From Desulfomonilia bacterium (lineage in GTDB: Bacteria > Desulfobacterota > Desulfomonilia > UBA1062): a stretch of 64,000 nucleotides of DNA. Both the position numbers and the translations under genes were made by a program. The notes beneath the pieces were generated by a model, which was not told the DNA's origin, searched no databases, and saw only the letters and a list, made by a program, of their open reading frames with translations. Within the stretch, counting starts at the first letter, position 1. The number at the start of each line of letters is the position of its first letter. Where the stretch lies: positions 154,645 through 218,644 of the forward strand of contig JBEKDT010000006.1 in the NCBI GenBank assembly GCA_050014195.1, written 5' to 3'. Shown here piece after piece: positions 20,508-50,101 of the stretch.

Positions 20508-22982
20508 GTGGTGGGTATGGCTGGACCCACAGACAGCACGGAGAAAAACAGGATCTGCAGGCTTGAGAGTGAATTGAATAAGTCACAGCTCACGATTGCT
20601 CAACTCCTTGAAAAAGAGCGCACGCTTTCCAATGTGATAGAAGCCATCCCCATCGCAGCCTTTGTCATCGACAGAACGCACCGGGTTACCCACTGTAACA
20701 GGGCCTATGAATACCTCACCGGATTCAGAAAAGAGGATCTCCTCAATACCAATAAACAGTGGTCCCCCTTCTATACCCGAAAGAAGAAGACCCTTGCTGA
20801 CCTTGTCGTGGACAATGCAGCAAGGCTGCAGATCGAAGATTACTATGGGAAGGATTCCCGTAGGATCAGCCACAAAGATGGGGCGTACGCGGTTGAGCTC
20901 TTTTTCCCCCATCTCGGTAATAAGGGGAAATGGATCTTCTGCACGGCCGCCCCCCTCAAGGACCGGGACGGGGTTACCATAGGTGCAGTGGAAACGCTCC
21001 AGGACCTCACCTCCCGAAAGGAGGTGGAAGAGGCCCTTTTCAAGTCGGAAGAGAAATCCCGGATCATTCTCGACCAGATCGAAGACGGTTACTACGAGGT
21101 TGACCTTCGGGGAAGGGTCATATTTTTCAACGACGCCTTCTGCACAATCATCGGGTATTCTAAGACAGACATGGTGGGCATGTCGTACAAGGTATTTGCT
21201 GGCCCTAAGTACATGAAAAAGATTTTCAGCATGTACAACCGGGTTTTCAGGACCGGCAAGCCCGTCAAGGCCTTCGAGTGGGAGATCGTCAGGAAGGATG
21301 GAACAAAACGGCTCGTGGAGTTCTCCGTGTCCCTCATGAGGAACGCATCAAATGCACCGGTGGGGTTCCGTGGGATCGTGCGCGATGTCACGGATGCCAG
21401 GAGTGCGGAGAGGGAGCTGCGCAGGTACAAGAACCGCCTCGAAGAGCTCGTGCAGGAGCGGACCTCCGAACTAAACAAAACCAACAAGAGGCTCACCAGG
21501 GTGATCGACAACCTGAGAAGGACGGAGAAGAATCTGGTGAAGCAGCAAAATTTCTCCGAGAGTATCATCCGTTCGCTGCCGTGCATCTTCTATATGATCG
21601 ATAAATCCGGCCAGTTCATTAAATGGAACAAAAAAACTGAGGAGATCGGGGGTTATTCGACAAAGGAAATGAACGACGTTCATGCCCTCGACTTCTTCCC
21701 GGAGAGGGAAAAATCAAATATCGCAGACAAAATCAGTGAGGTATTCAGCAGGGGCAGGGCGTTTACCAACACCGTCGTACTGGGTAGGGACGGCCGCGAA
21801 ACCCCTCACTACTTTACCGGGGTGCGTACGCATATCGACGGGAAGAGGTACCAGGTAGGGGTGGGGATCGACACCTCTGACGCGGTCCGTGCGGAGAAGG
21901 CGCTCAGGGAGAGTGAAGAGAAGCTCACCGCAATCCTTGGCTCGGTCACTGACTACATGATCATCGTCGATAGGTCGTACTCAGTGGTATGGGCCAATGA
22001 AAAGGCGCGCTCCCTTTTCCCGGACCTGATTAACAACAAATGCCACCAGGTCATCCATGGCAGCAAGCTGCCTTGCAATCCGTGCATCGGCGAAGTGTGT
22101 TTCCGTAAGGGGGGCACTTATGAGCGAGAAGGTGCCTGCATCATCCCTGTCAGTGGGGAAAGGATGGATTTCTGGAGCACCACGAGCATCGTGACCAGGC
22201 ATGGGGACGGCTCGCCTGAGCTTATCCTGGAGCTCTTCAGGGACACCACGGAAAAGAAAGCATACGAGGCCGAAGCCGTGCGTGTGGGCCAGCTCGCATC
22301 GCTGGGCGAGCTCGCTGCCGGAGTGGCCCATGAGATCAACAACCCCATTAATGGGATACTCAACTATGGACAGATACTTCTTGAGAAAACAGGGAGAGCA
22401 TCTGCAGACCATGAGATCCTGCAGAGGATAGTCCAAGAGGGGGAGCGGGTTGCGGGTATCGTCCATAATCTCCTTTCATTCGCCCGGGTAAGAAAGGATG
22501 AGTTCGTATCTACCTCACTGGATGAGGTTATCAGTTCCTGTCTCGGGCTTGTGGCCAAGCAGCTGGCCAATGACGGGATCTCACTGAGGATCGACACGGA
22601 TGTCGGGCTCCCGAGGCTCTATTGCAACAGCCAGCAGCTTCAGCAGGTGTTCCTGAACGTCATCAGCAACGCCCGGTATGCACTGAATCAGAAGTACAGG
22701 GGGGCCCACAGTAACAAGATCATCGAGATCAGCGCAGAAAAGACACGGATGAAGAGTATGAAGGCCCTGAGGATTATCGTGTGCGATCATGGCACGGGCA
22801 TATCGCCGGAGATAATCGACAAGATCGGCTCCCCCTTCTTCACCACGAAACCCATGAATGAAGGAACAGGGCTCGGGCTGAACATCAGCCATGGCATCAT
22901 CAAAAACCATGGGGGCAGGCTGTGGTTCGACAGCACCGTCGGTGAATTCACCAAGGTCATCATCGACCTGCCGGCACGTTAA
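20508..22982 (+). CDS. Cytoplasmic multi-PAS sensor histidine kinase
   Basis: Four PAS domains, no TM segment; GELAAGVAHEINNP; NVISNA, DHGTG, GTGLGL. Confidence 0.93.
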   Translation: MVGMAGPTDSTEKNRICRLESELNKSQLTIAQLLEKERTLSNVIEAIPIAAFVIDRTHRVTHCNRAYEYLTGFRKEDLLNTNKQWSPFYTRKKKTLADLVVDNAARLQIEDYYGKDSRRISHKDGAYAVELFFPHLGNKGKWIFCTAAPLKDRDGVTIGAVETLQDLTSRKEVEEALFKSEEKSRIILDQIEDGYYEVDLRGRVIFFNDAFCTIIGYSKTDMVGMSYKVFAGPKYMKKIFSMYNRVFRTGKPVKAFEWEIVRKDGTKRLVEFSVSLMRNASNAPVGFRGIVRDVTDARSAERELRRYKNRLEELVQERTSELNKTNKRLTRVIDNLRRTEKNLVKQQNFSESIIRSLPCIFYMIDKSGQFIKWNKKTEEIGGYSTKEMNDVHALDFFPEREKSNIADKISEVFSRGRAFTNTVVLGRDGRETPHYFTGVRTHIDGKRYQVGVGIDTSDAVRAEKALRESEEKLTAILGSVTDYMIIVDRSYSVVWANEKARSLFPDLINNKCHQVIHGSKLPCNPCIGEVCFRKGGTYEREGACIIPVSGERMDFWSTTSIVTRHGDGSPELILELFRDTTEKKAYEAEAVRVGQLASLGELAAGVAHEINNPINGILNYGQILLEKTGRASADHEILQRIVQEGERVAGIVHNLLSFARVRKDEFVSTSLDEVISSCLGLVAKQLANDGISLRIDTDVGLPRLYCNSQQLQQVFLNVISNARYALNQKYRGAHSNKIIEISAEKTRMKSMKALRIIVCDHGTGISPEIIDKIGSPFFTTKPMNEGTGLGLNISHGIIKNHGGRLWFDSTVGEFTKVIIDLPAR

Positions 22983-22996: not shown

Positions 22997-24742
22997 ATGG
23001 CAGAGCCTGAGAAGAAGAGACTCAAAAAAAAGATCCTCGTCGTGGATGACGAGGAAAGCATCAGGTTCACCTTCTCCCACTTCCTGAAGGAAGAGGGGTA
23101 TGATGTCGTCACCGCATCGGACCTCAAGAGCGCCCGGAGGATCCTGTTCCACACCCAGGTGGACCTCATCTTCATCGATATTGTGCTCGGAGGAGAATCT
23201 GGTCTGGACTTGCTCAAGCAGGTGAAGTCGCTGCATCTGAAGCATCCTGTGATCATGATAACGGGGAATCCTACCTTGGACAATGCGACCGATGCGCTCA
23301 GGCTCGGGGCCTTTGATTTCCTGCTAAAGCCTGTGCGGAAGGACGATCTGCTGAGGGCAGTCTCCCTGGCCATCAGTCACAAGGCTCTCATCGATGAGAA
23401 AGAGCTTGTCACGAGGGAGAAGGAGAAATACCGCACGAACCTGGAGGCGATCTTCCAGAGTGTGAACGAAGTGATCATAACGGTTGATGAGGACATGCAC
23501 GTGATCGATGCCAACAGACATATCGAGACCATCTGCAGCATATCCATCAAAAAAATCACCGGGCAGGCCTTTGATGATTGTTTCACGAAATGCAGCCACA
23601 ACTGCTCCAAGGTGATAAGGGAAACCCTGAAACAGAAAAAGCCCATACGGGAGCTCCGGATGGAATGCGAGCACTATGACCGGCCCCGGCAGGTGGTGCT
23701 GCTCTCATGTTCCCCCCTGATGGACGATGAAGGTGCATACATGGGGGCTGTTCTTGTAATCCGTGATATCACCAAGCTCCACGATCTCGAGGAGGAGCTG
23801 AGAGGCAGGAGCAAGTTCCAAAACATTATAGGAAAAAGCAAGAAAGTTCAGAATATCTTCAAACTTGTCGAGGCCCTCTCGGATCTCGGGACCACGGTTC
23901 TCATAACCGGCGAGAGCGGGACCGGCAAGGAGCTTGTGGCAAACGCCCTTCATTATTCGGGAAAGAGGGCGGGAAAACCCTTCGTGAAGGTGAACTGTGC
24001 AGCACTGGCCGAGAACCTGCTCGAGAGCGAGCTCTTCGGACACGCCAGGGGGGCGTTCACGGGTGCGATAAAGGACAAGCAGGGCCGATTCGAACTGGCA
24101 AAGGATGGCACCATTTTACTGGATGAGATCGGAGACATTCCACCGCGCATCCAGTCCAAGCTCCTGCGGGTCCTTGAGGCAAAGACCTACGAGCGCGTGG
24201 GCGATGCCGCCCCGAAAAAGACCGAGGCCAGGGTCATAGCCAGCACGAACCGCAACCTGCGGGAAAAGGTCAAGTCGGGGGAATTCAGGGAAGACCTGTA
24301 CTACAGGCTCAACGTGGTCGAGATCGAGCTCCCGCCCATGCGGGAGAGACTTGAAGACATCCCCCTGCTTGTGGATCATTTCTGCTCCATATTTGAAACT
24401 ACGTTCAAAAAGTTGATCAACGGCATCTCAGACGAAGTGATGAGGATATTCATCAATTACCGCTGGCCCGGAAACGTGAGGGAGCTGGAGCATGCCATAG
24501 AGCACGCGTTCGTACTGTGCAACGATCGTGTCATCCTGCCGGAGCACCTCCCTCCATACATGCTCGGCTCTGCGCTGAAGACTGGTACTGGGGATAACCA
24601 GTCCGGTGGTGAGATGGAGCTCATCCTTGATATCCTGACGCAGACCGACTGGAACATCGCCAAGGCCGCGCGTATGCTCTCCATGAGCAGGCCCACCCTG
24701 TATCGAAAGATGCGCGAGCATGGTATCGGCAAGCAAGGATAA
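22997..24742 (+). CDS. Sigma-54 enhancer-binding response regulator (REC-PAS-AAA+-Fis HTH)
   Basis: ILVVDDE/FIDI receiver; PAS; GESGTGKE, ESELFGH.RGAFTGA, WPGNVREL; RPTLYRK HTH. Confidence 0.95.
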   Translation: MAEPEKKRLKKKILVVDDEESIRFTFSHFLKEEGYDVVTASDLKSARRILFHTQVDLIFIDIVLGGESGLDLLKQVKSLHLKHPVIMITGNPTLDNATDALRLGAFDFLLKPVRKDDLLRAVSLAISHKALIDEKELVTREKEKYRTNLEAIFQSVNEVIITVDEDMHVIDANRHIETICSISIKKITGQAFDDCFTKCSHNCSKVIRETLKQKKPIRELRMECEHYDRPRQVVLLSCSPLMDDEGAYMGAVLVIRDITKLHDLEEELRGRSKFQNIIGKSKKVQNIFKLVEALSDLGTTVLITGESGTGKELVANALHYSGKRAGKPFVKVNCAALAENLLESELFGHARGAFTGAIKDKQGRFELAKDGTILLDEIGDIPPRIQSKLLRVLEAKTYERVGDAAPKKTEARVIASTNRNLREKVKSGEFREDLYYRLNVVEIELPPMRERLEDIPLLVDHFCSIFETTFKKLINGISDEVMRIFINYRWPGNVRELEHAIEHAFVLCNDRVILPEHLPPYMLGSALKTGTGDNQSGGEMELILDILTQTDWNIAKAARMLSMSRPTLYRKMREHGIGKQG

Positions 24743-24912: not shown

Positions 24913-24928
24913 TGGCACGAAGTTTTCA
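24913..24928 (+). promoter_or_regulatory. Sigma-54 promoter (variant -12)
   Basis: TGGCACG-AAGT-TTTCA: perfect -24, TC instead of GC at -12. Confidence 0.55.
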
Positions 24929-24999: not shown

Positions 25000-25365
25000 A
25001 TGAAGAGAAGAGTGAAACGGGAATATCCCATCAAGCTTATTAAGTACAACGAGTTTGACCACGAAATCGATTCGGCGGGCAAACCGGTCCTCATGCTGTG
25101 CATTCGCAGGGATTACGAGTTCAGCAGCCAGACGGATCTGATCAGGGATGTGCTCGGCAGGATGGTTCAAGGATTTCCCATAGACCTGAAGGTATGCCTG
25201 GTGGACGAAGAGTCCCGGCTGGCGCTCAAAGACAAGCTTGATCTTCAGGGCAGCCCTGCCTTCCTGCTCTTCGAAAAAGGCGAGGAAAAGAACCGCCTGC
25301 TGGGTGTTGCGGACGAGGAGCAGCTCAGGGGCTTTCTCAGCAGCACGCTGGGCTGGAACTTGTAG
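25000..25365 (+). CDS. Thioredoxin-fold protein lacking CxxC
   Basis: KPVLML...LDLQGSPAFLLFEKGEEKNRLLG thioredoxin C-half with cis-Pro; no CxxC. Confidence 0.65.
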   Translation: MKRRVKREYPIKLIKYNEFDHEIDSAGKPVLMLCIRRDYEFSSQTDLIRDVLGRMVQGFPIDLKVCLVDEESRLALKDKLDLQGSPAFLLFEKGEEKNRLLGVADEEQLRGFLSSTLGWNL

Positions 25366-25409
25366 GGGGCGGTTTAAGTTGATTTTCATAGACAGGAGGA
25401 GAGAAAGGT

Positions 25410-26669
25410 ATGCCGAACATTGATGATTTTATCAGGCCGAAGGAATGGGTTTCCGATTTCGTTACCGACATCGGGAAAGTGTTGAGGGAGTGGGGGAAGG
25501 ACAAATATTTACCGGTCAGACAGAAGATCGATGAGGATTGGACGCACCACAAGATCGTCAAACCCCTGTTGAAAGAGGTACTCGTCGATCTTGGGATTAA
25601 CGCAGCATTTTTCCCGTATGAGGTTGGTGGGACTGATATCCCAGATGCCTGCACGCTGATCTGCGTTCTTGGTGAGGAGGGGGCGAGGATCGATTCGGGA
25701 TTCACTGTTGCCTGCCTGTGTTCCGTATGGCCGATGCTGCCAATCATATTGAAACCTCACCGCAATATGAAACTTCTTGAGGAACTTGGACCGAAATTCT
25801 GTAGCTCCGAGCTGTATGTTGGCTGCAATGCCATGACAGAGCCTGCCAGCGGGGCGGACATTGAGAACATTGACCGGATGCAGGGCAAGACCATTCAGAC
25901 GACCGCAAAACTCGACGGTGATGAATGGGTGATCAACGGCCATAAGATATGGCCTACAAACTCAGGCGACGTGGCAAACCTTTACGGCGTGGTGTGCACC
26001 ACGAAGAAGGGGTCAAAGGACCTGAATGACTTTGCCTTCATTTACGTGCCCGCTGATACAAAAGGGGTCTCGGTCGGAGGTCCTTATCAGAAGGCAGGGA
26101 TGGCGGCAGACATGAATACTGATATCTGGTTTGATCAAGTGCGTGTGCCGAAGAGGTATCGCGCGCATGGACCAGGCGATGATCTGAAATATTTCAAAGA
26201 GATGATAACCTATGGGAACATGGGGACTGCCGCTATGTGTCTGGGGGTAATGAAGGGCGTCTATGAGATTATCAAAAAATGGACCACTGAGAGGATCATA
26301 GCAGGGAAACCCCTCAAGGAACACAGCATGGTGGCCGCAGCCCTTTCTGATATAGCCATCAACATCGAGGCAACATCTGCATGGATCCATATGTACGCAC
26401 GGGAAGTTGATCGCCCAGACATCTATGGAACAAATCCGTGGGATGACACGCTGGTGCATAAGACACGCGGACTATCCACATTTGCCTGTAAGGCAGTTGA
26501 GAAAGTCTGCAGCACAGCCATGGATTACATGGGCTCGTACGGTTACTCGAGAGAATTTGATCTTGAGAAGCACTGGAGGGACGGCAAAATGCTGGGACTT
26601 TGGATGGGCGGCCTGGGTTTGAAGCAGATGGAGAATGCCAGGTACTGGTATGAGCTGGAGACGTTGTAG
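25410..26669 (+). CDS. Acyl-CoA dehydrogenase family flavoprotein with atypical active site
   Basis: AMTEPASGAD, INGHKIWPTN, MGSYGYSRE...EKHWRD; LWMGG replaces IYEG. Confidence 0.9.
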   Translation: MPNIDDFIRPKEWVSDFVTDIGKVLREWGKDKYLPVRQKIDEDWTHHKIVKPLLKEVLVDLGINAAFFPYEVGGTDIPDACTLICVLGEEGARIDSGFTVACLCSVWPMLPIILKPHRNMKLLEELGPKFCSSELYVGCNAMTEPASGADIENIDRMQGKTIQTTAKLDGDEWVINGHKIWPTNSGDVANLYGVVCTTKKGSKDLNDFAFIYVPADTKGVSVGGPYQKAGMAADMNTDIWFDQVRVPKRYRAHGPGDDLKYFKEMITYGNMGTAAMCLGVMKGVYEIIKKWTTERIIAGKPLKEHSMVAAALSDIAINIEATSAWIHMYAREVDRPDIYGTNPWDDTLVHKTRGLSTFACKAVEKVCSTAMDYMGSYGYSREFDLEKHWRDGKMLGLWMGGLGLKQMENARYWYELETL

Positions 26670-26726
26670 GCAAGGGATACAATAACCAGAATTTATGAAA
26701 GAAAAAATCAATTAGGAGGTGAACCA

Positions 26727-27149
26727 ATGGCTCTATATCCATCGCAGGAATGGTGTGATGCATGGAAAAATGCAATGAACAATGATCCGGCATGTGTAGA
26801 AAACGGGAAGAATTGGGCCCTGGATTTTCCAGGGGATTTTCTCTTTGAGGTCACCCCGGGATCAGGGCTGGATAAGACACACTACATATATGCCAACATC
26901 AAAGGGGGCAAGTGCCTTGAATTGAAAATGCTCGATAGCCCAGGGGAAATAAAGCCTGGGTTCTATGTCACAGGCACCTATGGCGACTTTAAACCGGTGG
27001 TTAAGGGTGAAAAAGACTTTATAGAAGGCGTTGTTCGGGCGCTTTTCAAACTGAAGGGGGATATGGGGAAGATCATGCGCAATGCCAAATACATCCGGGC
27101 AATGGCAGCTTCCATAAGCTCATTCAAGAACGAGTATCTCGGCGAGTGA
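26727..27149 (+). CDS. SCP2 sterol/lipid carrier domain protein
   Basis: YPSQEW start; GEKDFIEGV..ALFKLKGDMGKIM SCP2 C-terminal pattern; GGAGG RBS. Confidence 0.8.
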   Translation: MALYPSQEWCDAWKNAMNNDPACVENGKNWALDFPGDFLFEVTPGSGLDKTHYIYANIKGGKCLELKMLDSPGEIKPGFYVTGTYGDFKPVVKGEKDFIEGVVRALFKLKGDMGKIMRNAKYIRAMAASISSFKNEYLGE

Positions 27150-27169
27150 GGGCTGGATAAGGAGGCCAA

Positions 27170-27532
27170 ATGGGAGAGATCCGCATCATCGGCGATCTCA
27201 ACGGCCTGGGTGCCACTCTGCTGCCCATTATGGAACAGAACATCGACAACCCGCAGCGCATGAAGAAGATCAGCAGGATTTCGGGCAGCCTCATGGCGAC
27301 GGAGAAGAGCACCGGTGTGGCGATCACCATTCTGTTCGATAGAGGGGTGATTTCCATCAAGGATGGGGCCATCCCAAACCCCTCGGCTGCACTGTGGACT
27401 GATTTCGACACGTTGGCTGCATACAGCTGCGGTGAGCTGAATCCCATCGTGGGTGTGCTCAAGGGCAGGATAAAGGTAAGGGGAAACCTCCTCAAGCTCC
27501 TGAAGATGGTGACCATCGTGCGGGCAGACTAA
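27170..27532 (+). CDS. SCP2 sterol/lipid carrier domain protein
   Basis: GELNPIVGVLKGRIKVRGNLLKLLK SCP2 signature. Confidence 0.8.
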   Translation: MGEIRIIGDLNGLGATLLPIMEQNIDNPQRMKKISRISGSLMATEKSTGVAITILFDRGVISIKDGAIPNPSAALWTDFDTLAAYSCGELNPIVGVLKGRIKVRGNLLKLLKMVTIVRAD

Positions 27533-27557
27533 CACGATACGGCAAGGGGATAAGGAC

Positions 27558-29417
27558 ATGTCCGGTTTCATGGGAAAGATTCTCAGGGTAGATCTTACAC
27601 ACAGGAAGGTATCGGAAGAGCCCCTTCCCAGAGGAGATGCCGCCCTCCTCCTGGGAGGGTGCGGTCTAGCCACCAAGTACCTGTTCCAGGAGCTCAAACC
27701 AGGTGTTGACCCGCTCGGACCCGAGAACAAGCTCATCTTCATGTCGGGGCCTTTAACCGGGACGCTCTCTCCCAGTTCCGGCAAGTACAATGCCGTCACC
27801 AAGTCCCCGCTGACAGGCCTCTGGGGCCAATCGGGCTCGGGTGGGAAGTGGGGCAGGGAGCTCAAGAGGAGCGGCTTTGACGGCATCATCATCGAGGGGG
27901 CCTCCGAAAAACCAGTCTACCTCATCATTGACAATGGCAAAGTTACGTTCAACGATGCTTCCGGGCTCTGGGGGAAGAACGTCTTTGACACCACGACGAT
28001 CCTCGAACAGCAGCTCGGCAAGGGCTTCTGTATCGCCTGCATCGGTACTGGCGGTGAAAACCTCGTCAAGTATGCCGCCATCATGAACGAGCGCCACCGG
28101 GCGTTGGGCCGGGGCGGATTCGGCGCTGTGATGGGCTCCAAGAAGCTCAAGGCCGTGGCAGTGAAAGGCGAGATGAAGATTCCCATATTCGACCAGGCGG
28201 CCTTCGAGGCGGCTGCGAAGGTTGCCTCCGACTTCATCAGCGAAAGCCTCCTCAAGATAACGCTCGAGGTGTACGGCACCGCCATGGTGCTCGACCTCGT
28301 CAACGTCAAGGGCGGTCTGCCCACGCGCAACTGGCAGGGCGGTGTCTGCGCATATGCAGACAAGATTAATGCACCGGCCATCAATGATAAGATCCTGGTG
28401 GGGAGGAAGGCGTGCTTTGCCTGCCCTATTGCTTGCGGCAGGCACGTGGACATCAAGACCGGAAAATATGCCATTAAGGGCGAGGGACCGGAGTACGAGA
28501 GCATCGGCACCTTCGGGTCCATGTGCGATATCAGTGATATTGAGGCCATCACCTATGCCCACATCCTGTGCAACGACCTGGGTCTCGACACGGTCTCGGC
28601 GGGCAGTACTATCGCCTTTGCCATGGAGTGCTACGAGAAGGGGATACTCAAGAAGAAGGACACGGGAGGCAAGGAGATCCTGTTCGGCAATGCGGACACC
28701 ATGGTTGACCTGGTCCGAAGCATTGCTGCCAGGCAGGGTATAGGCGACCTCCTGGCCGAGGGTACCAGGCGCATGGCCGCTCAGCTCGGGCATGGCAGCG
28801 AGCGGTTCGCCATGAATGTCAAGGGCATGGAGCTGCCCGCCTATGACTGCAGGGCCACAAAGATCACCGGCCTGGCGTATGTCACGGCAAACAGGGGCGG
28901 CGACCATATAACTGCATACATTCAAGGGCCTACATTTCTGGACATCCCCTTCCTCATCGTGGAGGAGAACACCATCGAGGACGCCACAAAGGAAAACCCT
29001 CTGGAGGCCAAGGTCGTCAAGGACATGGAAGACGCTCTGACCACCTTCGATGCGCTGGGTGCCTGCAAGTTCATGGGCATGGCCCTCATGGCCGACGATC
29101 TCTTGCCCGTGATCAACGCCGCCACGGGCTGGAACCTCGATGTGGCCGGGTTCAGGCGTTCGGGTGAGCGGATCTTCAACCTGGCCCGTATGTTCAACAT
29201 ACGGGAGGGAATGAGGAGGAAAGATGACACCCTGCCGGCCAGGCTGCTCGAAGAACCACTGCCCGACGGCCCTGCAGCAGGGCTTACCGTTGACCTCGAT
29301 CCGCTGCTTGACGCCTACTACGAATTCAGGGGTTGGGACATGCAGACAGGGATACCCACAAGAGAGAAGCTTCGCGAACTGGAATTGGATTTTGTGATCG
29401 ACGAGTTGGGAGACTGA
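27558..29417 (+). CDS. aor: Aldehyde ferredoxin oxidoreductase (tungstopterin AOR family)
   Basis: GFMGKILRVDL, KSPLTG, GRGGFGAVMGSKKLKA, CFACPIAC, GPEYE, DLGLDT, RGGDH, YYEFRGWD. Confidence 0.93.
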   Translation: MSGFMGKILRVDLTHRKVSEEPLPRGDAALLLGGCGLATKYLFQELKPGVDPLGPENKLIFMSGPLTGTLSPSSGKYNAVTKSPLTGLWGQSGSGGKWGRELKRSGFDGIIIEGASEKPVYLIIDNGKVTFNDASGLWGKNVFDTTTILEQQLGKGFCIACIGTGGENLVKYAAIMNERHRALGRGGFGAVMGSKKLKAVAVKGEMKIPIFDQAAFEAAAKVASDFISESLLKITLEVYGTAMVLDLVNVKGGLPTRNWQGGVCAYADKINAPAINDKILVGRKACFACPIACGRHVDIKTGKYAIKGEGPEYESIGTFGSMCDISDIEAITYAHILCNDLGLDTVSAGSTIAFAMECYEKGILKKKDTGGKEILFGNADTMVDLVRSIAARQGIGDLLAEGTRRMAAQLGHGSERFAMNVKGMELPAYDCRATKITGLAYVTANRGGDHITAYIQGPTFLDIPFLIVEENTIEDATKENPLEAKVVKDMEDALTTFDALGACKFMGMALMADDLLPVINAATGWNLDVAGFRRSGERIFNLARMFNIREGMRRKDDTLPARLLEEPLPDGPAAGLTVDLDPLLDAYYEFRGWDMQTGIPTREKLRELELDFVIDELGD

Positions 29418-29420
29418 AGA

Positions 29421-31106
29421 ATGAGTGAAAACAGCAAGAGACCATGGATCAAGAACTACAAGCTCGGACCGTTCGCCCTGGCGGACACCATGGCACCGTA
29501 TCCGGTGGTGTCGCTCAGTGCCATCTTCGATGAGACAGCTGCAAAATATGCGAAGAGGGCGGCATGCGAGTATTTGGGCAAGAAATATACCTGGGAGGAG
29601 CTGAAGAACCTTGTGGACAGGCTCGCAACCGCCCTGGCAGGCCTCGGCACCGTCAAGGGGGACAGGGTGGCGACCATCCTGCCCACATCACCCCAGTTCA
29701 TCATCAGCGATTATGCAATCCTCAGGGCAGGTGCGGTCCACGTGCCGTGCAGCCCGCTGCACCGCAGCAAGGAGCTCGCTTACGAGATCGGCCAGTCCGG
29801 GGCGAAGATCCTCATCTGTCTCGAGGAGTCTCTCGAACTCGTGAGTTCCATACGGGATAATACGATACTCGATCACATCATTGTCACCAATGTGCAGGAT
29901 TTCTCTGCAGACGAGCCGGCCGTCAAGGAGATACCCGGAGTGCTCCAACTCAGGAAGGTAATTGCAGCCCATGAGCCCATGCGGGCTGCGGTCAGCGTGA
30001 ATCCGGAGGAGGACCTCGCAGAGCTCGTATTCACCGGCGGCGCCACAGGTGTACCCAAGGGGGTCATGCTGACGCACTACAACCTGGTCACGAACACGAT
30101 CCAGGCATTGCCCTGGGTCCTCAAGCCGCTGGAGAAGGGTATCATCGGCAAGGCATCCATGCTCATCGGGATACCCACGTTCCACTCCTACGGTCATTGG
30201 ACCATCAGGGCGTCCGTGTTCTGGGGGCTCCAGATGCTCCTGCTGCCGGACTCGAGGGACACGGACACCATCGTACACTTTCTAAAGAAGTACCGGCCCT
30301 TCATGGCACCCCTGGTCCCCACCCAGTATATGCGGCTCGTGGAGAAGAAGATCGGCCGGACGAACACGACCTTTGCATCAGGGGCAGCGCCTTTGCCCGA
30401 GAAGGTGAGGGCCGATTTCAAGAAGGAGACCGGCATGCCCATCACCGAGGCATACGGGCTGACCGAGACTAGCCCGGTTACGCACTTCAATGTGTCCAGC
30501 TTCTCGAAGATAACTGGTTTCATGCCCTTCGAGAAGGTCGGCTCCATCGGGGTGCCTGTCGTGGATACCGATGCCAGGGTTGTGGACGAGGCAACGGGGA
30601 AGGACCTCGGACCGGGCGAGGTGGGTGAGCTCTACGTGCGCGGACCTCAGGTCATGATGGGGTACTGGCCGGAGCCGGGTTCCGGCCTCATTGAAGGCTG
30701 GCTCAGGACCGGCGACCTCTGCAGGATGGACGATGACGGGTACTTCTTCCTAGTGGACCGCGACAAGGACATGGTGAATGTCTCTGGCAACAAGGTCTAC
30801 ACCACACTCGTCGACACAGTGCTCTTTGAGCACGCGTCCGTGGCCAGTGCTGTAGCTATCGGGGTTCCCGATCCGGAGCGGGACGGCAGCGAGCGGATCA
30901 AGGCGTTCGTGGTCCTGAAGGACAGCTGCAAGGGAACGGTAACGGAGGCGGACATCATCGAGCACTGTCGGCAGAATCTGGCGCCGTATGCAGTGCCCAG
31001 GACTGTGGAGTTTCGGGACAGCCTTCCCATGACCGTGACGGAGAAACTTTTCAAGAAGCAGTTGAGAGATGAAGAAATGCGGAAACAGCAGGAAATGAAA
31101 GGATAA
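29421..31106 (+). CDS. Acyl-CoA synthetase (AMP-forming, long-chain/aryl type)
   Basis: FTGGATGVPKG, AYGLTETSP, GWLRTGD, VDRDKDM. Confidence 0.92.
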   Translation: MSENSKRPWIKNYKLGPFALADTMAPYPVVSLSAIFDETAAKYAKRAACEYLGKKYTWEELKNLVDRLATALAGLGTVKGDRVATILPTSPQFIISDYAILRAGAVHVPCSPLHRSKELAYEIGQSGAKILICLEESLELVSSIRDNTILDHIIVTNVQDFSADEPAVKEIPGVLQLRKVIAAHEPMRAAVSVNPEEDLAELVFTGGATGVPKGVMLTHYNLVTNTIQALPWVLKPLEKGIIGKASMLIGIPTFHSYGHWTIRASVFWGLQMLLLPDSRDTDTIVHFLKKYRPFMAPLVPTQYMRLVEKKIGRTNTTFASGAAPLPEKVRADFKKETGMPITEAYGLTETSPVTHFNVSSFSKITGFMPFEKVGSIGVPVVDTDARVVDEATGKDLGPGEVGELYVRGPQVMMGYWPEPGSGLIEGWLRTGDLCRMDDDGYFFLVDRDKDMVNVSGNKVYTTLVDTVLFEHASVASAVAIGVPDPERDGSERIKAFVVLKDSCKGTVTEADIIEHCRQNLAPYAVPRTVEFRDSLPMTVTEKLFKKQLRDEEMRKQQEMKG

Positions 31107-31150
31107 ATCGATTGATGGAGACACCAGGACTAAAAAATGAGGAGGTCAAA

Positions 31151-32284
31151 ATGACAGCGATAGAAGAGCTGAAGAAATTACCTTCACGCGAAAAGAATCC
31201 GTACATAAAGGAATGGAAGGCAGATGGGCGCAAAATCGTCGGTTTCACCTGCCATTATGCGCCGAAGGAGATTATTAACGCAGCAGGCATATTTCCTTAC
31301 CGGCTTGAAGCCCGGGGGACAAAAGAAACAGGACTTGCCGATGTGTACTACCACCGTTTCAACTGTACGTATTCCCGGTGTATTTTGCAGGAGGGTCTAT
31401 CCGGCGGATATGATTTCCTTGACGGAGTGTGCTTCTTGAATGGCTGCGAACAGATACGGCGGATGTACGAAGTATGGAAAGAAGCCGTTCCGACAACCGA
31501 TTATCAATACATGGTCACTGTCCCCCACTCGATCTATGATGAGGGCTTTGAATGGTATAAGGAGGAGATCTTCAGGTTCAAAGAAGATCTAATGAGTAAT
31601 TTCTCCGTAAGACTTAACAATAGCGACTTACAGTCAAGTATCGGTGTGTACAACGAAAGCAAACACCTATTGAAGGAGCTCTATGAGCTGAGAAAGGCCG
31701 ATAATCCTCCCATCAGCGGTACAGAGGCAATGAAGCTTGTATTTGCTGCTGATATCATGCCCAGGGAAAAGTACAATACCCTCCTCAAAAAATCCCTGAA
31801 GCAGATCCGATCGCGTGATGGAATTAAGGATTATAAGGCAAGGATCATGGTCGGAGGTTCCCCATTAGATGATACTCAGCTTATTGAGATCATCGAGAGC
31901 CTCGGTGGGATCGTGGTGACAGATACCCTCTGCGGAGGCTCAAGAAACTTCCAGGAGTTTGTTGAGGTTGAACAGGATGGAGATCCCTTGGCAGCGATTG
32001 CCAGGTGCTATTACTATAGTAATCCATGTCCCCGTATGCTTGGTCATTTTGAATCGCGGCTCCAGTATACGGAAAAAATTGCCAAGGAAGCGAATGTGGA
32101 CGGCATCATCCTCCAGAGGGTCGTGTTCTGCGACAACCATGCTGTTGATAACACCATGTTAGCAGATGAATTGGAACCCAAGGGGATCCCTGTACTCAAT
32201 CTCGAGAGAGAACATATGCTGACTGATGTGGGGAGAGTGAGAACCAGGATCGAGGCCTTTATCGAGAGAATTTCAAGGAGGTAG
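31151..32284 (+). CDS. 2-hydroxyacyl-CoA dehydratase / class I benzoyl-CoA reductase family subunit (BzdN/BcrC/HgdB-like)
   Basis: CTYSRC, NGCEQIRR, LCGGSR, PCPR, FCDNH, RTRIEAFIE; GGAGG RBS. Confidence 0.88.
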   Translation: MTAIEELKKLPSREKNPYIKEWKADGRKIVGFTCHYAPKEIINAAGIFPYRLEARGTKETGLADVYYHRFNCTYSRCILQEGLSGGYDFLDGVCFLNGCEQIRRMYEVWKEAVPTTDYQYMVTVPHSIYDEGFEWYKEEIFRFKEDLMSNFSVRLNNSDLQSSIGVYNESKHLLKELYELRKADNPPISGTEAMKLVFAADIMPREKYNTLLKKSLKQIRSRDGIKDYKARIMVGGSPLDDTQLIEIIESLGGIVVTDTLCGGSRNFQEFVEVEQDGDPLAAIARCYYYSNPCPRMLGHFESRLQYTEKIAKEANVDGIILQRVVFCDNHAVDNTMLADELEPKGIPVLNLEREHMLTDVGRVRTRIEAFIERISRR

Positions 32285-32287
32285 ACC

Positions 32288-33688
32288 GTGGCTGAATACA
32301 GTGACAGAAAAGACAGAACAATCACCACAAGGTGGCAGATAACCGGTGATTTGGCAAAATTTATTCTAACGCAGGATCTCTCGCACCTGGATGATTGGGG
32401 TGGGAAGGAGGCTGTACGCGAGGTCTTGCCCGAGCACTATCAGAAAATTTTCGATCTCGTACAGACCGATTTGATAAACTGCCTCCTGGAAGAGAAGAAC
32501 AGGAAAACGGCCATGGGATTTGCGGAGTGCATGGGGAGATGGGGCGACTGGTTTCACTCACAACTGGATCAAGGGAAAAAGGTAGTATACCATTATTTTG
32601 TCCATACCATCGAGCCTATGCTTGCCCTTGATCTTGCACCCATATGTCTCGAAGTCCTCTCAGGCTTGACCGCTGCCCTCTATACCGACGGGTGCGAAGA
32701 GGGTATCGATGCTATGCATGCCGAAGGGTATCCCGATCACCTCTGTTCTTCCAATATGGGAGGAGCCGGCTTTCTCTTAAAAGGATACGTACCTAAACCT
32801 GACGCCTTTTTAAAGGGGACCACCCCATGCGATCCCAGCAACAGGGTCTATGAATATCTTGCCCGCAAATTTAATGCCCCTCTTATCGTTGTCGAGACTC
32901 CCTATTACATGAACGAGCGTGCTCTCAAGTTTTTGACGACTGAAATGAAGAGGATGATTGGAAAACTGGAGAAGATTGCAGGGAAAAAGCTCGATGAGGA
33001 CAAGTTGAGGGAGTACATTAAATTAAGTAATGAAACCGGGGAATATATCTTGAAAATTCAGGAATTGAGGAAGCTGGTACCATGCCCAGACACGGGATGG
33101 CACCGCCCCGCCGACACCATCTTTACGGCGCAGATGGGAACACCTTTTTCCAGGGATTATTTCAAGGGCCTCTACGAGATTGTAAAAGAACGCGCTGACA
33201 AGGGCCAGGGAGTCATACCTGAGGGCAAAAAGGAGGTACGCCTGGCGTGGGGATATACCTGGGAGTGCTTTGATCTGCCGTTTTTCAACTGGCTCGAAAA
33301 CAAATACGGTGCAATCTACACGGAAGATTGTCTCACGTTATTCCCTGCGGACTATGCGATGATTGATACGACCAACATGGAGACCATGATTGAGGGGCTG
33401 GCACAGAGAATGATGCAGGTGCCCATGGCGAGGCAAGCCATGAGCTGGTCAGATACCTGGGTAAATGATTTTGTTGATGTAGCAAGGGCGTATAAGGTTG
33501 ATGCCTTGGCCATTGGCGGTCATATGGCCTGCAAGCATTTCTGGGCGCTCAACAAACTTCTTACCGACAAGGTAAAGGAAAAAACTGGTGTTCCCGCCTT
33601 GCGTTTCGAAATGGATATGATGGACAAGAGGTTCACCAGTCCCTCGGAGTTGAAACGTATTATGGACGACTTTTTTGCAACCTTCTGA
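32288..33688 (+). CDS. 2-hydroxyacyl-CoA dehydratase / class I benzoyl-CoA reductase family subunit (BzdO/BcrB/HgdA-like)
   Basis: GYPDHLCS, TPCD, GHMACK three-Cys pattern; G.P.L.FE.D..D.RF C-terminus. Confidence 0.85.
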   Translation: MAEYSDRKDRTITTRWQITGDLAKFILTQDLSHLDDWGGKEAVREVLPEHYQKIFDLVQTDLINCLLEEKNRKTAMGFAECMGRWGDWFHSQLDQGKKVVYHYFVHTIEPMLALDLAPICLEVLSGLTAALYTDGCEEGIDAMHAEGYPDHLCSSNMGGAGFLLKGYVPKPDAFLKGTTPCDPSNRVYEYLARKFNAPLIVVETPYYMNERALKFLTTEMKRMIGKLEKIAGKKLDEDKLREYIKLSNETGEYILKIQELRKLVPCPDTGWHRPADTIFTAQMGTPFSRDYFKGLYEIVKERADKGQGVIPEGKKEVRLAWGYTWECFDLPFFNWLENKYGAIYTEDCLTLFPADYAMIDTTNMETMIEGLAQRMMQVPMARQAMSWSDTWVNDFVDVARAYKVDALAIGGHMACKHFWALNKLLTDKVKEKTGVPALRFEMDMMDKRFTSPSELKRIMDDFFATF

Positions 33689-33729
33689 ACCTTTATCTGA
33701 AGACGTGATTCATGAAGGGGGAACATAAA

Positions 33730-34515
33730 ATGTTGATCCTTGGTTGTGATGTCGGTGCCATAACCACAAAGACCGTTATCTTTGGAGACGATGGTATTGT
33801 GGCATACGATATAACAGCGAACAACGGCAACCTGACAAAGGTTGTAGATAAAAGCGTGGATAATGTGATTTCCAAGGCCGGTGTGTCGCTTGCCGGCATC
33901 GATGTAAAGGCGGGTACGGGAATGGGTGAACGGTACATCTCCTTTGATCACATCACGGAAAGCATTATCAAATGCCTTGCCGTGGCTGCCCATCGGATCC
34001 ATCCCGATACGCGAACCGTTGTGGATATGGGGGGCTTGATAACCACCGTTATCAGCATCAACGAGAAGGGGAAGGTGCTCGAGTACAGAACGAGCGATAA
34101 GTGCGCGTCAGGGTGCGGTTTTTTCCTGAGGCTTGCTGCCCAGGCCCTTGAAATGAAGGTCGAAGATTTTGGTAATCTTATTCTCCCCTACGGGGAAAGT
34201 GCCCATATGGGCACCCAGTGTGCAGTATTCGGGGAGAGTGAAATTGTCAGTCATATAAATGACGGGGTGGAACCCGCGAAAATTGCAGCCGGGATCAACC
34301 ACTCCCTAGGAAGATCAGTCACCACGATGATCAACAGGATTGGGGGGATCAAGGATATAGTTGCCACCGGCGGGGTCGCGAAAAACAAAGGTGTGATAAG
34401 GGCAATAGAGGAGACACTCGGCATGGAGGTGATCACTCTCTCATCAATAGACGAGCAGTTGTTAGGCGCACTCGGGGCTGCATTGTGTGCACAGCAGCGA
34501 GTGCAGCAGGGATAA
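33730..34515 (+). CDS. ASKHA ATPase activase subunit 1 (BzdP/BcrD/HgdC-like)
   Basis: GCDVGAITTK, DMGG, DKCASGCG, QCAVFGESE, TGGVAKN, GALGAA. Confidence 0.9.
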   Translation: MLILGCDVGAITTKTVIFGDDGIVAYDITANNGNLTKVVDKSVDNVISKAGVSLAGIDVKAGTGMGERYISFDHITESIIKCLAVAAHRIHPDTRTVVDMGGLITTVISINEKGKVLEYRTSDKCASGCGFFLRLAAQALEMKVEDFGNLILPYGESAHMGTQCAVFGESEIVSHINDGVEPAKIAAGINHSLGRSVTTMINRIGGIKDIVATGGVAKNKGVIRAIEETLGMEVITLSSIDEQLLGALGAALCAQQRVQQG

Positions 34516-34527
34516 GGAGGGATTGTA

Positions 34528-35370
34528 ATGATCTATGTGGGTTGTGATGTCGGTTCCCTCTCGGGCGAAGCAGTAATCATCGAAGATGATTCCATTGTCG
34601 AATATGAGATCATACGGGTAAGGCCGAGACCCGAACAAACTGCCTTAGAAGTGACTGAAAAAGTTCTATCCAAGACGAGCTTGTCGTTTGATGACATAGA
34701 TTATTGTGTGAGCACGGGCTATGGTAGGGAGAAGATCCCCTTCGCACAGAGCAGCATCTCGGAGATCTCCTGTCATGGAAGAGGGGCGCAGTGGGCCAAC
34801 CCGAGTGTCCGGACGATCATAGATATCGGCGGTCAAGACGCCAAGGTAATCAGGGTAGACAAATATGGCTACATGGTCGATTTCATAATGAATGACAAGT
34901 GCGCTGCCGGGACGGGAAGATTTCTCGAGGGGATGGCAAGGGTTCTGGGTGTCGAGCTTGAGGATCTTGCAGCCCTCTCTTCCGGGGCAACCTCTCCTGT
35001 TGCCTTAACAAAGACGTGCACAGTACTGTCACAATTTGAGGTGTTGTACATGCTCAATGATGGGGTAGACCGGGCAAACATTGCTGCCGGGATAAACAGG
35101 GCGATGGCTGATAGGATAAGTAAGCTGGTTAAGCGTGTTGGAATAAAGGAAGGGGTAGCCATAACAGGAGGTGTCGCAAAGAATTTTGCAGTGGTCCAGA
35201 GCCTGATAGAGGTGCTCGGAGTAGAGTTTGTGAGCCTTGGTGAAGTTGACCCTCAGATTGTTGGAGCCTTGGGTGCAGCCCTATTTGCAAAGGAACGGTG
35301 GCAAAAGGCCCGGCAGAGGGAGGCCACCCCGGCTGGAGGAAACAAGGATACAAAGAGCGTATGTGTCTGA
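34528..35370 (+). CDS. ASKHA ATPase activase subunit 2 (BzdQ/BcrA/HgdC-like)
   Basis: GCDVGS, TGYGR, EISCH, DIGGQDAK, MNDKCAAGTGRFLE, TCTV, TGGVAKN. Confidence 0.92.
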   Translation: MIYVGCDVGSLSGEAVIIEDDSIVEYEIIRVRPRPEQTALEVTEKVLSKTSLSFDDIDYCVSTGYGREKIPFAQSSISEISCHGRGAQWANPSVRTIIDIGGQDAKVIRVDKYGYMVDFIMNDKCAAGTGRFLEGMARVLGVELEDLAALSSGATSPVALTKTCTVLSQFEVLYMLNDGVDRANIAAGINRAMADRISKLVKRVGIKEGVAITGGVAKNFAVVQSLIEVLGVEFVSLGEVDPQIVGALGAALFAKERWQKARQREATPAGGNKDTKSVCV

Positions 35371-35400
35371 GGGCTTCACGTCTATGCATAGGAGGAAAGA

Positions 35401-36228
35401 ATGTGCGAATGCTGCAACTCACACAAGAGACCCATTAATGAAATCATCGCGGTAACAGGAAAGGGCGGGACCGGTAAGACCACCCTGGTATCCCTCATGA
35501 CCCGAATCCTGCGCTCAAAGGGGTTCTCGGTCCTCGCAGTGGACGCAGACCCTGCGGTGAGCCTCACTTATGCCCTCGGGTGCACTCCGGTCAAGACCAT
35601 CGCGGATCTCAGAACAAAAATGATCGAGGATCCAGAAGAGAAGAGGAGGATCAAGGACATCCCCATGGAGGAGGTCATAGCTGGGGAAGCAGTCATGACC
35701 TTCAACGGATACAGCCTGCTTGTCATGGGCAAGTCAGAGGGACCGGGCTGCTTCTGCAAGATAAACGATCTCCTCAGGTATGGGATCAGTACGCTCTCGA
35801 AGCAATACGACTTCACTCTGGTCGATTGCGAGGCCGGAGTCGAGCAGATCAACAGGCGCGTTTTGGATACCATCACGAGGCTATTCATGGTGACGGATAC
35901 GACTGCCAAGGGTCTGCGGACCGCCTCGAGCATCCGCGGGATCGCTGGCGAATACGGAATTCAGGGTGATTATACCAAGGGGGTGATCCTGAACAGGATA
36001 CGAGGCACGGAGATCGATGAGATGGTGAAAAAGGCTAATGGTCTGGGCATCGAAATCCTGGGCTTCATGCCTGAAGACCCTTGTGTAACGGAACATGATC
36101 TGCTGGACATACCCATAACGGACATCCCTGACAATTCCCCCTGTCTGAAGGCGGTCAGGGATATCCTCGAGAAGCAGGGTTTTTTCAATAATGCTCATCG
36201 CCATGAGGCTACAGGCACGCTCCGCTGA
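35401..36228 (+). CDS. CooC/AcsF-family MinD-type ATPase
   Basis: GKGGTGKTT, VDADP, GPGCFC metal-binding CxC, DCEAGVEQ..R; Cys-rich N-terminus MCECCNSH. Confidence 0.85.
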   Translation: MCECCNSHKRPINEIIAVTGKGGTGKTTLVSLMTRILRSKGFSVLAVDADPAVSLTYALGCTPVKTIADLRTKMIEDPEEKRRIKDIPMEEVIAGEAVMTFNGYSLLVMGKSEGPGCFCKINDLLRYGISTLSKQYDFTLVDCEAGVEQINRRVLDTITRLFMVTDTTAKGLRTASSIRGIAGEYGIQGDYTKGVILNRIRGTEIDEMVKKANGLGIEILGFMPEDPCVTEHDLLDIPITDIPDNSPCLKAVRDILEKQGFFNNAHRHEATGTLR

Positions 36229-36338
36229 ACTTTATGAAGATAGGAGCCGGATTGCAGGGCAAGGGGTGGATAACGAGGCTGTGAGGTGGGAAGCGCCTTT
36301 TTTCTATATATACATCTCATTTTTAAGGAGGAATTGAT

Positions 36339-37073
36339 ATGAAGTGTGTTTTAAAGTCGGCATTATTTCTTTGTGTATTTTTCATCTTGCCACTCATTGT
36401 GCACGCCGAGGATTTCATGGCCCAAGGCAATGCCCTCTTCGACAAAGGGAAGATAAACCTGGAGAGCTATAAAGAGTCGGGTGACATGTTCATAAAGGCC
36501 CTGGAGGTAAATCCGAACAGCTATGAGGCGGCATGGAAGGCGGCCCGCTCGTACCGATATTATGCCGATGAATCCAAGAAAAAGAACACGCAGAACTGGA
36601 AGGCTGTCTGCAAGGAGTACGGGAAGATTGGGATGAAGTATGGGGAGAAGGCTATTGCCCTGAATCCGGATGGTGTTGAAGGCAATACCTGGTACGGGTT
36701 CTCGGTAGCGAGCTATTCTGACAGCGTGAGCGTGCTCACGGCTCTCAGGGAAGGTTTGAAGGATAAGACCCAGAATAGTTTCGAGAGGGCTTACAAGATA
36801 AACAAGATGTATCAGGATGGTGGACCCATAAAAGCCCTAGGCCGCTTCTGGTACGTCCTACCCTGGCCGCTCCAAGACAAGAAATTATCATTACAGTACC
36901 TGAGGGAATTTCAGAAAACATTTCCTAATGACCCCGAAGGTCAAGTGTACCTGGGTGAGACACTCATAAAGAGCGGAGGAAAGGATGAGGCCAAGTCGAT
37001 TCTCCAGAAGGCATCGGCATCCAACGACAAGTACTATGCCGACTGGGCGAAAAGGCTTATTGCTAATATGTAA
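36339..37073 (+). CDS. Exported TPR-like helical repeat protein
   Basis: Signal peptide ending VHA; YEAAWKAAR, KAIALNP, LGRFWYVLPW; AGGAGG RBS. Confidence 0.7.
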   Translation: MKCVLKSALFLCVFFILPLIVHAEDFMAQGNALFDKGKINLESYKESGDMFIKALEVNPNSYEAAWKAARSYRYYADESKKKNTQNWKAVCKEYGKIGMKYGEKAIALNPDGVEGNTWYGFSVASYSDSVSVLTALREGLKDKTQNSFERAYKINKMYQDGGPIKALGRFWYVLPWPLQDKKLSLQYLREFQKTFPNDPEGQVYLGETLIKSGGKDEAKSILQKASASNDKYYADWAKRLIANM

Positions 37074-43586: not shown

Positions 43587-43595
43587 GAGTGAGCA

Positions 43596-45452: not shown

Positions 45453-45482
45453 AAAAGTACAAGACTATTGAGAGGTAACGTG

Positions 45483-46424: not shown

Positions 46425-46442
46425 CTTTTTGAGGAGGTGACT

Positions 46443-48269: not shown

Positions 48270-48306
48270 ATCCACATGAATGCATGGTAACCAAAAGGTG
48301 ATTCTC

Positions 48307-49191: not shown

Positions 49192-49250
49192 ATATCGACG
49201 ATATCAAGACTATCTGCATTATCGGCGCCGGGAAGGAGATGCGAACATGA
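49188..49250 (+). pseudogene. Internally deleted remnant of a 3-hydroxyacyl-CoA dehydrogenase gene (20 codons)
   Basis: MNIDDIKTICIIGAG-KEMRT*; own AAGGAG RBS; ATGA overlaps with both neighbours. Confidence 0.7.
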
Positions 49251-50017: not shown

Positions 50018-50101
50018 TCCGTCTCATACTTTGTGGTACCATTCTCGAACACGATACCATGATTACTGAGACGGAAGGAAATGAAGGTGCCGGAGGACTA
50101 T

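Follow-up and report, generated by a model that had tools for sequence, protein, structure and literature searches.

An eleven-gene operon of a Desulfomonilia bacterium predicted to encode a conserved, uncharacterised branch of the benzoyl-CoA reductase/dehydratase/DCCP superfamily with a CooC-type partner

The locus

The stretch of DNA analysed here, hereafter the window, comprises 64,000 nucleotides of contig JBEKDT010000006.1 from a Desulfomonilia bacterium (assembly GCA_050014195.1) and carries at positions 25000-36228 (+) an operon of eleven same-strand genes separated by gaps of 3-57 nt, as listed by open reading frame (ORF) and annotated with Pfam and NCBIfam (Table 1). The genes encode a thioredoxin-like protein, an atypical flavoprotein of the acyl-CoA dehydrogenase (ACAD) fold, two SCP2-like proteins (S1 and S2), an aldehyde:ferredoxin oxidoreductase (AOR), an acyl-CoA ligase, two HGD-D subunits (N and O), two ATPase subunits (P and Q) and a CooC-type ATPase. 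As far as these genes and their relatives can be read, the operon encodes an uncharacterised branch of the benzoyl-CoA reductase/dehydratase/DCCP superfamily (DCCP, double-cubane cluster protein) with a distinctive CooC-type partner, a branch that is real and conserved, and it is probably an inducible catabolic operon for a hydrophobic aldehyde or carboxylic acid. No description of the gene set was found in the literature, surveyed mostly at abstract level, and SCP2 alongside benzoyl-CoA reductase or AOR terms gave no match in the literature searched.

The first-pass annotation, made from the letters of the window alone, had described eleven co-directional, tightly spaced genes behind one sigma-54 promoter, with ring-pathway and amino-acid-fermentation genes absent from the operon, and the ORF listing and annotation agree with it on each count; the gene families it named are likewise those of Pfam and NCBIfam, but its title lists the genes in an order other than that of the sequence. 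A sensor kinase and a sigma-54 activator lie immediately 5' of the operon, and their orthologues accompany the related loci L010, L012 and L013 (kinase, 84-94%) and L010 and L012-L015 (activator, 81-93%). The motif YTGGCAY-N5-TTTCA stands 5' of the first gene in 6/6 close loci that have the same sigma-54 activator, the window included; the strict pattern occurs only twice across the 64 kb window, and the element was looked for and not found at the more distant locus L055. Two palindromes upstream of the promoter element, TTACACnnGTGTAA, are likely the binding site of the activator; two copies are present in the window, two in L010 and one in L014. The thioredoxin-like gene is taken to start at the ATG at 25000, the listed ORF beginning at a TTG at 24982. 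At the other end of the operon the terminator call is weak, because four such sites were found against 2.0 expected.

Table 1. Features of the operon and its immediate surroundings in the window
Feature	Positions	Strand	Basis
PAS-domain sensor histidine kinase	20508..22982	+	Pfam PAS x3, HisKA, HATPase_c
Sigma-54-dependent response regulator (receiver, PAS, AAA+, HTH_8)	22997..24742	+	Sigma54_activat, 228.9 bits
Two palindromes TTACACnnGTGTAA	24799..24827	+	read in sequence; predicted activator binding site
-24/-12 sigma-54 promoter element TGGCAC-N5-TTTCA	24913..24928	+	pattern match, kept in close loci
Thioredoxin-fold protein without CxxC	25000..25365	+	weak Pfam Thioredoxin match, 21.5 bits vs cut-off 23.5
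Atypical ACAD-fold flavoprotein	25410..26669	+	Acyl-CoA_dh_M and _1 domains
SCP2-like protein S1	26727..27149	+	Pfam SCP2 18.1 bits, under cut-off
SCP2-like protein S2	27170..27532	+	Pfam SCP2 25.1 bits vs cut-off 21.3
Aldehyde:ferredoxin oxidoreductase (AOR type, single large subunit)	27558..29417	+	AFOR_N, AFOR_C
AMP-forming acyl-CoA ligase, FadD/4CL group	29421..31106	+	AMP-binding and C-terminal domain
N subunit (BzdN/BcrC-like), 390 aa, predicted [8Fe-9S] carrier	31112..32284	+	HGD-D, 306 bits
O subunit (substrate-binding type), 466 aa, predicted open-site [4Fe-4S]	32288..33688	+	HGD-D, 182.6 bits
ATPase subunit P (BcrAD/HgdC family)	33712..34515	+	BcrAD_BadFG, 136 bits
ATPase subunit Q (BzdQ-like)	34528..35370	+	BcrAD_BadFG, 185 bits
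CooC/MinD-type P-loop ATPase with CxC motif	35401..36228	+	best PDB match CooC1 3kje
Terminator-like hairpin and T run	36283..36299	+	predicted, likely operon end

Conservation and distribution

With N as query against one genome per species, 12 related loci were recovered from metagenome-assembled genomes labelled Desulfomonilia, Syntrophaceae, Desulfarculales or 'delta proteobacterium'. The genes that the first-pass annotation had grouped as one system do travel together: the order N-O-P-Q-CooC is kept in 12/12 loci, and in the 10 loci with enough upstream DNA, the only ones in which the upstream half was scored, the ACAD, S1 and S2 are present in 10/10 and the AOR and a full ligase, completing that half, in 9/10. 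Ligase, N and O are tightly linked, with gaps of 3-5 nt, in nine of the ten. Some genes of L011, L012 and L015 are split into more than one ORF. The kinase and sigma-54 activator are restricted to the close loci, a LuxR-type regulator standing in their place at L019, and the thioredoxin-like gene has the same limits apart from a relative of 29% identity in L055. An extra Fe-S protein of ~430 aa is encoded between S1 and S2 in L019, L020/L062 and L067; a PDB sequence search with this protein of the distant orthologous operons returned only generic 2x[4Fe-4S] ferredoxin-domain matches. L067 (G239:C91, 10145-13064) also has two tandem O-type genes between N and P, 58% and 60% identical to the O of the window.

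Identity to the window is uneven along the operon. At L015 it is 93-100% in the ACAD, S1, AOR and ligase and 72% in N and O; at L009 and L010 the CooC-type gene is 63-69% identical and its neighbours are 80-97% identical. This mosaic, seen at all three loci, suggests recombination between operon variants.

Beyond these loci, the N-O-P-Q-CooC core is found in 5/5 loci of sister clades (L053-L057; O 38-44% identical), in contexts that differ from one another: a MarR regulator, an AOR and ligase in L056, or a glycyl-radical enzyme and its activase in L057. At the last of these (G234:C18, 5511-10257) the core adjoins a glycyl-radical enzyme of 993 aa and a radical-SAM activase. Of 401 genomes sampled across the phylum, 22, counting that of the window, encode O-like proteins (E<=1e-60), which are thus more common than BcrB-type reductases (6/401); their distribution is patchy, since only one of two other genomes of the same genus and one of six of the same family contain them. 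An O profile retrieved 352 representative clusters (E<=1e-30) among 1.84 billion proteins, and the source names examined are all generic or automatic.

The N and O subunits

N has as its nearest solved relative BzdN (8s02_B, 193.5 bits in a PDB search). Its Cys47, 85, 112, 274, 306 and 340 are invariant in 33/33 sequences and align with the Cys common to BzdN and DCCP, in a spacing near that of the published DCCP motif minus its seventh, non-ligand Cys. According to Fuchs et al. (2025, PMC11971306), the double cubane of BzdN is a two-electron store, and the dehydratases have lost it.

In O, Cys153, 181 and 415 are invariant in 29/29 sequences and align with BzdO C95, C128/129 and C380, and E122 aligns with a Glu of three BcrB equivalogs, BzdO lying outside the alignment over that stretch. 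The His131 of BzdO is replaced by Ser in O, a difference that is not diagnostic because the BcrB equivalogs are without that His as well, and the motif around the third Cys reads GHMACKH in O versus NRGCEGL in BzdO. That His412/His417 of O might go together with the CooC gene was considered and set aside: 12 CooC-linked sequences read GHMACKH and the nearest four without CooC read GG(N/Y)Q(T/G)CKY, but this amounts to a single split between two clades, and remoter sequences break the pattern, so that such a link has no real support.

In a FastTree phylogeny (LG+gamma) of 67 O-type proteins, rooted with the window genome's own DCCP equivalog and containing no BzdO, HadB, HgdA, FldB or Thn sequences, the family, with 27 members, is monophyletic (support 0.989), a wider clade unites it with the sister sequences (0.805), and the six proteins above the BcrB cut-off form a separate clade (1.0). 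O is thus, in this tree, a member of its own clade apart from the BcrB equivalogs; together with the missed cut-offs given below, this is in keeping with the expectation of the first-pass annotation that the subunits would not fall inside a characterised clade. BcrB equivalogs of one family (L095-L099, from G136, G256, G284, G310 and G334) lie in frames of 792-831 aa, ~2x normal length, and may be fusions with a C-type subunit.

A different assignment of N and O starts from the double cubane: they could form a DCCP-like reductase of small molecules that does not act on CoA esters, the AOR, ligase, ACAD and SCP2 proteins belonging to a separate lipid/aldehyde pathway that shares the operon. N scores 200.1 bits on the DCCP model NF040772, and the core stands without AOR, ligase and ACAD in L053-L055 and L057; yet that score is under the 350-bit cut-off, N forms a heteromeric enzyme with O, a subunit of the substrate-binding type represented by HadB and BzdO, and the ligase gene is closely linked to N and O in nearly all loci scored, so we regard this assignment as very unlikely. 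The genome of the window also holds, on contig C3, a lone HGD-D copy that is a true DCCP equivalog (457.7 bits) and adjoins a DUF362 protein.

ATPase subunits and CooC-type ATPase

P and Q are two distinct genes whose products are 35% identical to each other. Cys131 and Cys170 of P are invariant in 21/21 sequences, and Cys125 and Cys164 of Q in 35/35; each pair would serve a bridging cluster, as in class I reductases.

The CooC-type ATPase matches CooC1 with only 55.4 bits. It has the deviant Walker A motif GKGGTGKT, its GPGCFC aligns with the CxC of CooC, and both CxC Cys are invariant in 20 sequences. Its gene always follows Q in the branch loci examined, and no CooC-type gene was found around BcrB equivalogs in 4/4 loci; the Pfam and NCBIfam annotation includes no carbon monoxide dehydrogenase (CODH) or acetyl-CoA synthase (ACS) gene in the operon. 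A bolder proposal, which we rate as distinctly unlikely, is that this ATPase assembles or repairs a non-standard cluster, maybe containing nickel or another heterometal, in the reductase, which would then represent a new metallocofactor class in the superfamily. If this were true, strict anaerobes could carry out Birch-type or different ultra-low-potential reductions of greasy acyl-CoAs with electrons taken from the substrate's own aldehyde via the AOR.

AOR, ligase and accessory proteins

By its domain and structure matches, the operon AOR is a genuine AOR-type enzyme: Pfam assigns AFOR_N (267.5 bits) and AFOR_C (459.6 bits), and Cys286, 289, 293 and 503, which we take to be the cluster-binding residues, are invariant in 11/11 sequences. 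The best PDB match is the AOR of P. furiosus (1aor) at 507.5 bits versus 227.8 for BamB, which rules out a BamB-like role. No small-subunit gene adjoins the AOR gene at the operon. The ligase has long-chain fatty-acid ligases as its top NCBIfam matches, none of them above cut-off, and in the PDB it matches a feruloyl-/fatty-acyl-CoA synthetase (200 bits), A. fulgidus FadD-1 (187) and 4CL (171).

Both S1 and S2 display the C-terminal pattern of SCP2 in alignments, and although S1 of the window falls short of the Pfam cut-off, its orthologue in L019 exceeds it (26.3 bits), as does an S1-like protein encoded elsewhere in the genome (37.6). Complex prediction for the AOR with S1 and S2 scored 0.00, which has no bearing either way. 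The ACAD has no N-terminal domain match in Pfam, and its best NCBIfam match is cyclohexane-1-carbonyl-CoA dehydrogenase (145.6 bits vs a cut-off of 650). The thioredoxin-like protein retains a single Cys in the region of the thioredoxin motif.

Nature of the reaction

We tentatively favour, at somewhat less than an even chance, an enzyme that works like class I benzoyl-CoA reductase yet is not benzoyl-CoA reductase itself. The first-pass annotation had its substrate 'dehydrated or reduced'; a two-electron ATP-driven reductase appears more likely than a dehydratase, because N keeps the six double-cubane Cys and because two different ATPase subunits are encoded, so that the second half of that phrase stands and the first becomes the less likely.

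Several observations weigh against a class I-like reductase. No subunit attains any curated benzoyl-CoA reductase, dehydratase or DCCP cut-off in NCBIfam, and the margins for the reductase models are wide (bits/cut-off: BzdN 197.6/453.8; BzdO 40.9/448.6; BcrB 70.7/486.55; BcrC 147.2/421.15; BzdQ 206.4/380.2). O matches any solved chain with merely 39-45 bits, and its AlphaFold2 model (pLDDT 91.4), which superposes on HadB, BzdO and MbdO with template-modelling (TM) scores of 0.70-0.74, is about equally near to HadB (0.70-0.72) and BzdO (0.73-0.74); the fold therefore leaves reductase versus dehydratase undecided. In the ACAD, an alignment to 2dvl places WMG where the glutamate of the canonical YEG is expected and Gly at the helix-G position, so that both usual catalytic glutamates are gone from what we take to be the positions of the two known ACAD bases. 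The genome of the window (4.2 Mb) is scored 100% complete, and none of the ring-pathway equivalogs sought in it reaches its cut-off (Oah/BamA 69.9/464.45, dienoyl-CoA hydratase 80.5/292.5, BadI 138.2/467.6); in the eight genomes examined among those with an O of >=54% identity, G229 not being one of the eight, BamA is present in three and absent from five. The AOR and ligase are not obligatory partners of the core: L011 has no AOR match and its ligase is a 13% fragment, and in G045 the order is S1-S2-N-O-P-Q-CooC, with the SCP2 pair immediately before N and no AOR or ligase in the DNA examined. At the position of BzdO Tyr97 the O branch has Ser, Ala or Thr (C-S-S/A/T vs C-S-Y in BzdO and C-T-Y in three aligned BcrB equivalogs). 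The accessible text of Fuchs 2025 (PMC11971306) states that this Tyr, two residues after the first Cys, contacts the thioester oxygen and the ring, that ATP-spending reductases of the class I type are typical of facultative anaerobes, and that two ATP per turnover are costly for strict anaerobes.

The same features bear on a ketyl-radical dehydratase, of the 2-hydroxyacyl-CoA type or similar, which would act on a hydrophobic hydroxy-acyl-CoA and be followed by the ACAD as an enoyl-CoA reductase or dehydrogenase, as in Had, Fld and Lcd. The fold of O would suit it as well as it suits a reductase, known dehydratases are accompanied by ACADs and the operon ACAD reaches 118 bits against the model of AcrC, an acryloyl-CoA reductase, and the genome has about ten HGD-D pairs (20 PF06050 matches) in the absence of a ring pathway. 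On the other hand, 2-hydroxyacyl-CoA dehydratases have a single homodimeric activator, and their clusters are defined by a CoA-transferase and a 2-hydroxyacid dehydrogenase; the operon has two ATPase subunits in place of the former and neither of the latter. The six Cys of N are not complete in HadC, the HadB and HadC models score 70/750 and 156/700, and on balance we think a dehydratase unlikely.

That the operon encodes an ordinary benzoyl-CoA reductase is what the automatic names would have it, JGI labelling homologues of N 'bzd-type benzoyl-CoA reductase N subunit' or 'benzoyl-CoA reductase subunit C'. This is exceedingly unlikely, because the equivalent of BzdO Tyr97 is missing and the genome is without equivalogs of Oah/BamA, dienoyl-CoA hydratase (Dch) and BadI; the BzdN, BzdO, BcrB and BzdQ scores far below cut-off and the separate clade of the six BcrB equivalogs also speak against it.

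In a narrower form of the favoured reading, the enzyme would be an aryl-CoA reductase that dearomatises the CoA ester of some bulky, hydrophobic aromatic acid, for example an alkylbenzoate or one that is tetralin- or naphthoate-like. The subunits are built up as in class I benzoyl-CoA reductase, hydrophobic aryl acids would be well served by SCP2 proteins and a 4CL-like ligase, and the thn operon, as described in the accessible text of PMC12016498, shows that strict anaerobes can have an enzyme of the class I type. Measured against that same text, however, the operon is without the thn-style hydratase, hydrolase and thiolase genes; ring-cleavage equivalogs are absent from the genome and the Tyr97 equivalent from O, and we consider this form possible but doubtful.

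Returning to a class I-like reductase of broader scope, we reasonably infer a route from aldehyde to acid to CoA ester to a radical step, with the AOR feeding ferredoxin. The AOR would oxidise a hydrophobic aldehyde and reduce ferredoxin, the aldehyde/acid couple lying near the ferredoxin potential according to the accessible text of a review (PMC13328260), and the ligase would form the CoA thioester, while the SCP2 proteins would hold or carry the greasy substrate, its CoA ester or intermediates. With ATP, P and Q would drive ferredoxin electrons through N, by way of its [8Fe-9S] cluster, to O with its open [4Fe-4S] site, and O would place two very low-potential electrons onto some portion of the acyl-CoA that is conjugated or aromatic. 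The product would be handled by the ACAD-fold flavoprotein with its missing base, beta-oxidation enzymes encoded elsewhere would complete the degradation, and the CooC-type ATPase would mature or repair a metal cluster.

Paralogous systems and neighbouring genes

Within the genome, two ATPase subunits and a CooC-type gene occur together only in this operon and in a cluster on contig C12. The latter, a paralogous supercluster (L021; G000:C12:44000-63999), comprises two TetR regulators, two ACADs, two N/O pairs, three BcrAD ATPases and a short-chain dehydrogenase/reductase. Its CooC-like ATPase adjoins a CdhC-like (ACS beta subunit-like) protein of 245 aa, and it encodes a 2x[4Fe-4S] protein of 436 aa with a CHCCGCCCG-type Cys run, like the ~430-aa Fe-S protein of the distant operons. 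Relatives of the operon ACAD stand beside paralogous systems on C12 (44% identity) and in L064 (37%).

The pairing of AOR and SCP2 recurs in L022 (G000:C2:340000-353000), where an S1-like gene comes after a second AOR, 38% identical to that of the operon. This module (2928-9389), which further includes a sensor kinase, a LuxR-type regulator and an Fe-alcohol dehydrogenase, appears to deal with a hydrophobic substrate at the alcohol, aldehyde and acid levels.

Directly after the operon lies a gene for a TPR lipoprotein (36339-37073, +), which L012-L014 also have downstream (76-78%) and of which contig C2 carries a paralogue at 77% identity; the sole named protein that it resembles, the sterol transporter BstC, is matched very weakly (22 bits vs 350). 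Further on, the window encodes a putative nickel-pincer-nucleotide-dependent ornithine cyclodeaminase (37608-38711, -; NF052526, 588.7 bits vs a cut-off of 440) and a separate lipid/beta-oxidation cluster (42792-52793, +) with two enoyl-CoA hydratases, a FadE-type ACAD of 618 aa, an alpha/beta hydrolase, a thiolase, an AMP ligase of 610 aa, a patatin-like phospholipase and a 4-hydroxybutyryl-CoA dehydratase-like protein of the HpaB fold.

Occurrence and significance

This DNA is found nearly whole in metagenomes from peat or wetland (at least 18 runs), and its source may be among them. RNA-library contigs of a close relative, 95-99% alike and drawn from four metatranscriptome runs of wetland origin, span the regulator genes and the stretch from N to CooC and include short pieces of the AOR and ligase; they leave 36.5-39 kb uncovered, and likewise portions of the genes for the ACAD, SCP2 proteins and ligase, gaps that prove nothing, and they give no more than a hint that the operon is transcribed.

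The distinct branch described here, of the class I type on the favoured reading, is found in strict anaerobes that live in peat, wetland, sediment and digesters. Because the names given to its subunits by automatic annotation are bzdN or bcrC, metagenome surveys may count the branch as anaerobic aromatic-degradation capacity even where a ring-cleavage pathway is missing. Identification of the substrate would extend the picture of anaerobic carbon turnover in peat by one step, and that of the client of the CooC-type helper would bear on how double-cubane clusters are made.

Comparison with known systems

The class I benzoyl-CoA reductases (BzdNOPQ, MbdONQP and BcrABCD; 8S02, 9G87) likewise combine two HGD-D and two BcrAD subunits, here encoded by adjacent pairs of PF06050 and PF01869 genes, and share with the operon the six double-cubane Cys of N and the three Cys and conserved Glu of O. 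They differ in that O reaches only 39 bits to BzdO, with Tyr97 and His131 replaced and the equivalog cut-offs missed, in that a CooC-type ATPase goes with the operon side and was not found at 4/4 loci of BcrB equivalogs, and in that the operon is without ferredoxin and dienoyl-CoA pathway genes.

HadBC with its activator HadI (3O3M) resembles the operon in the fold of O, the three-Cys site for an open [4Fe-4S] cluster and an ACAD nearby, but HadC has Ala where N has the Cys of its CGGSR stretch, and Had has one homodimeric activator and a cluster with a CoA-transferase and a dehydrogenase. DCCP and DCCP-R (6ENO, 7YYL) have six cluster Cys in a spacing similar to that of N; DCCP is, however, a one-subunit homodimer with a seven-Cys motif, whereas N is without the seventh Cys and pairs with O.

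The thn operon, compared by gene content and as far as the accessible text of PMC12016498 describes it, likewise belongs to strictly anaerobic Desulfobacterota and encodes an ATP-dependent reductase of the class I type whose substrate is a hydrophobic aryl-CoA; its 22 genes include hydratases, thiolases, a lyase and a ferredoxin and no AOR, SCP2 or CooC, and on this gene content identity between the two operons is ruled out. The nickel-insertion ATPases CooC1 and AcsF of CODH/ACS, finally, have the Walker A and CxC motifs in common with the CooC-type ATPase; in the operon, which is without CODH/ACS, the client of that ATPase would be a benzoyl-CoA reductase-like enzyme.

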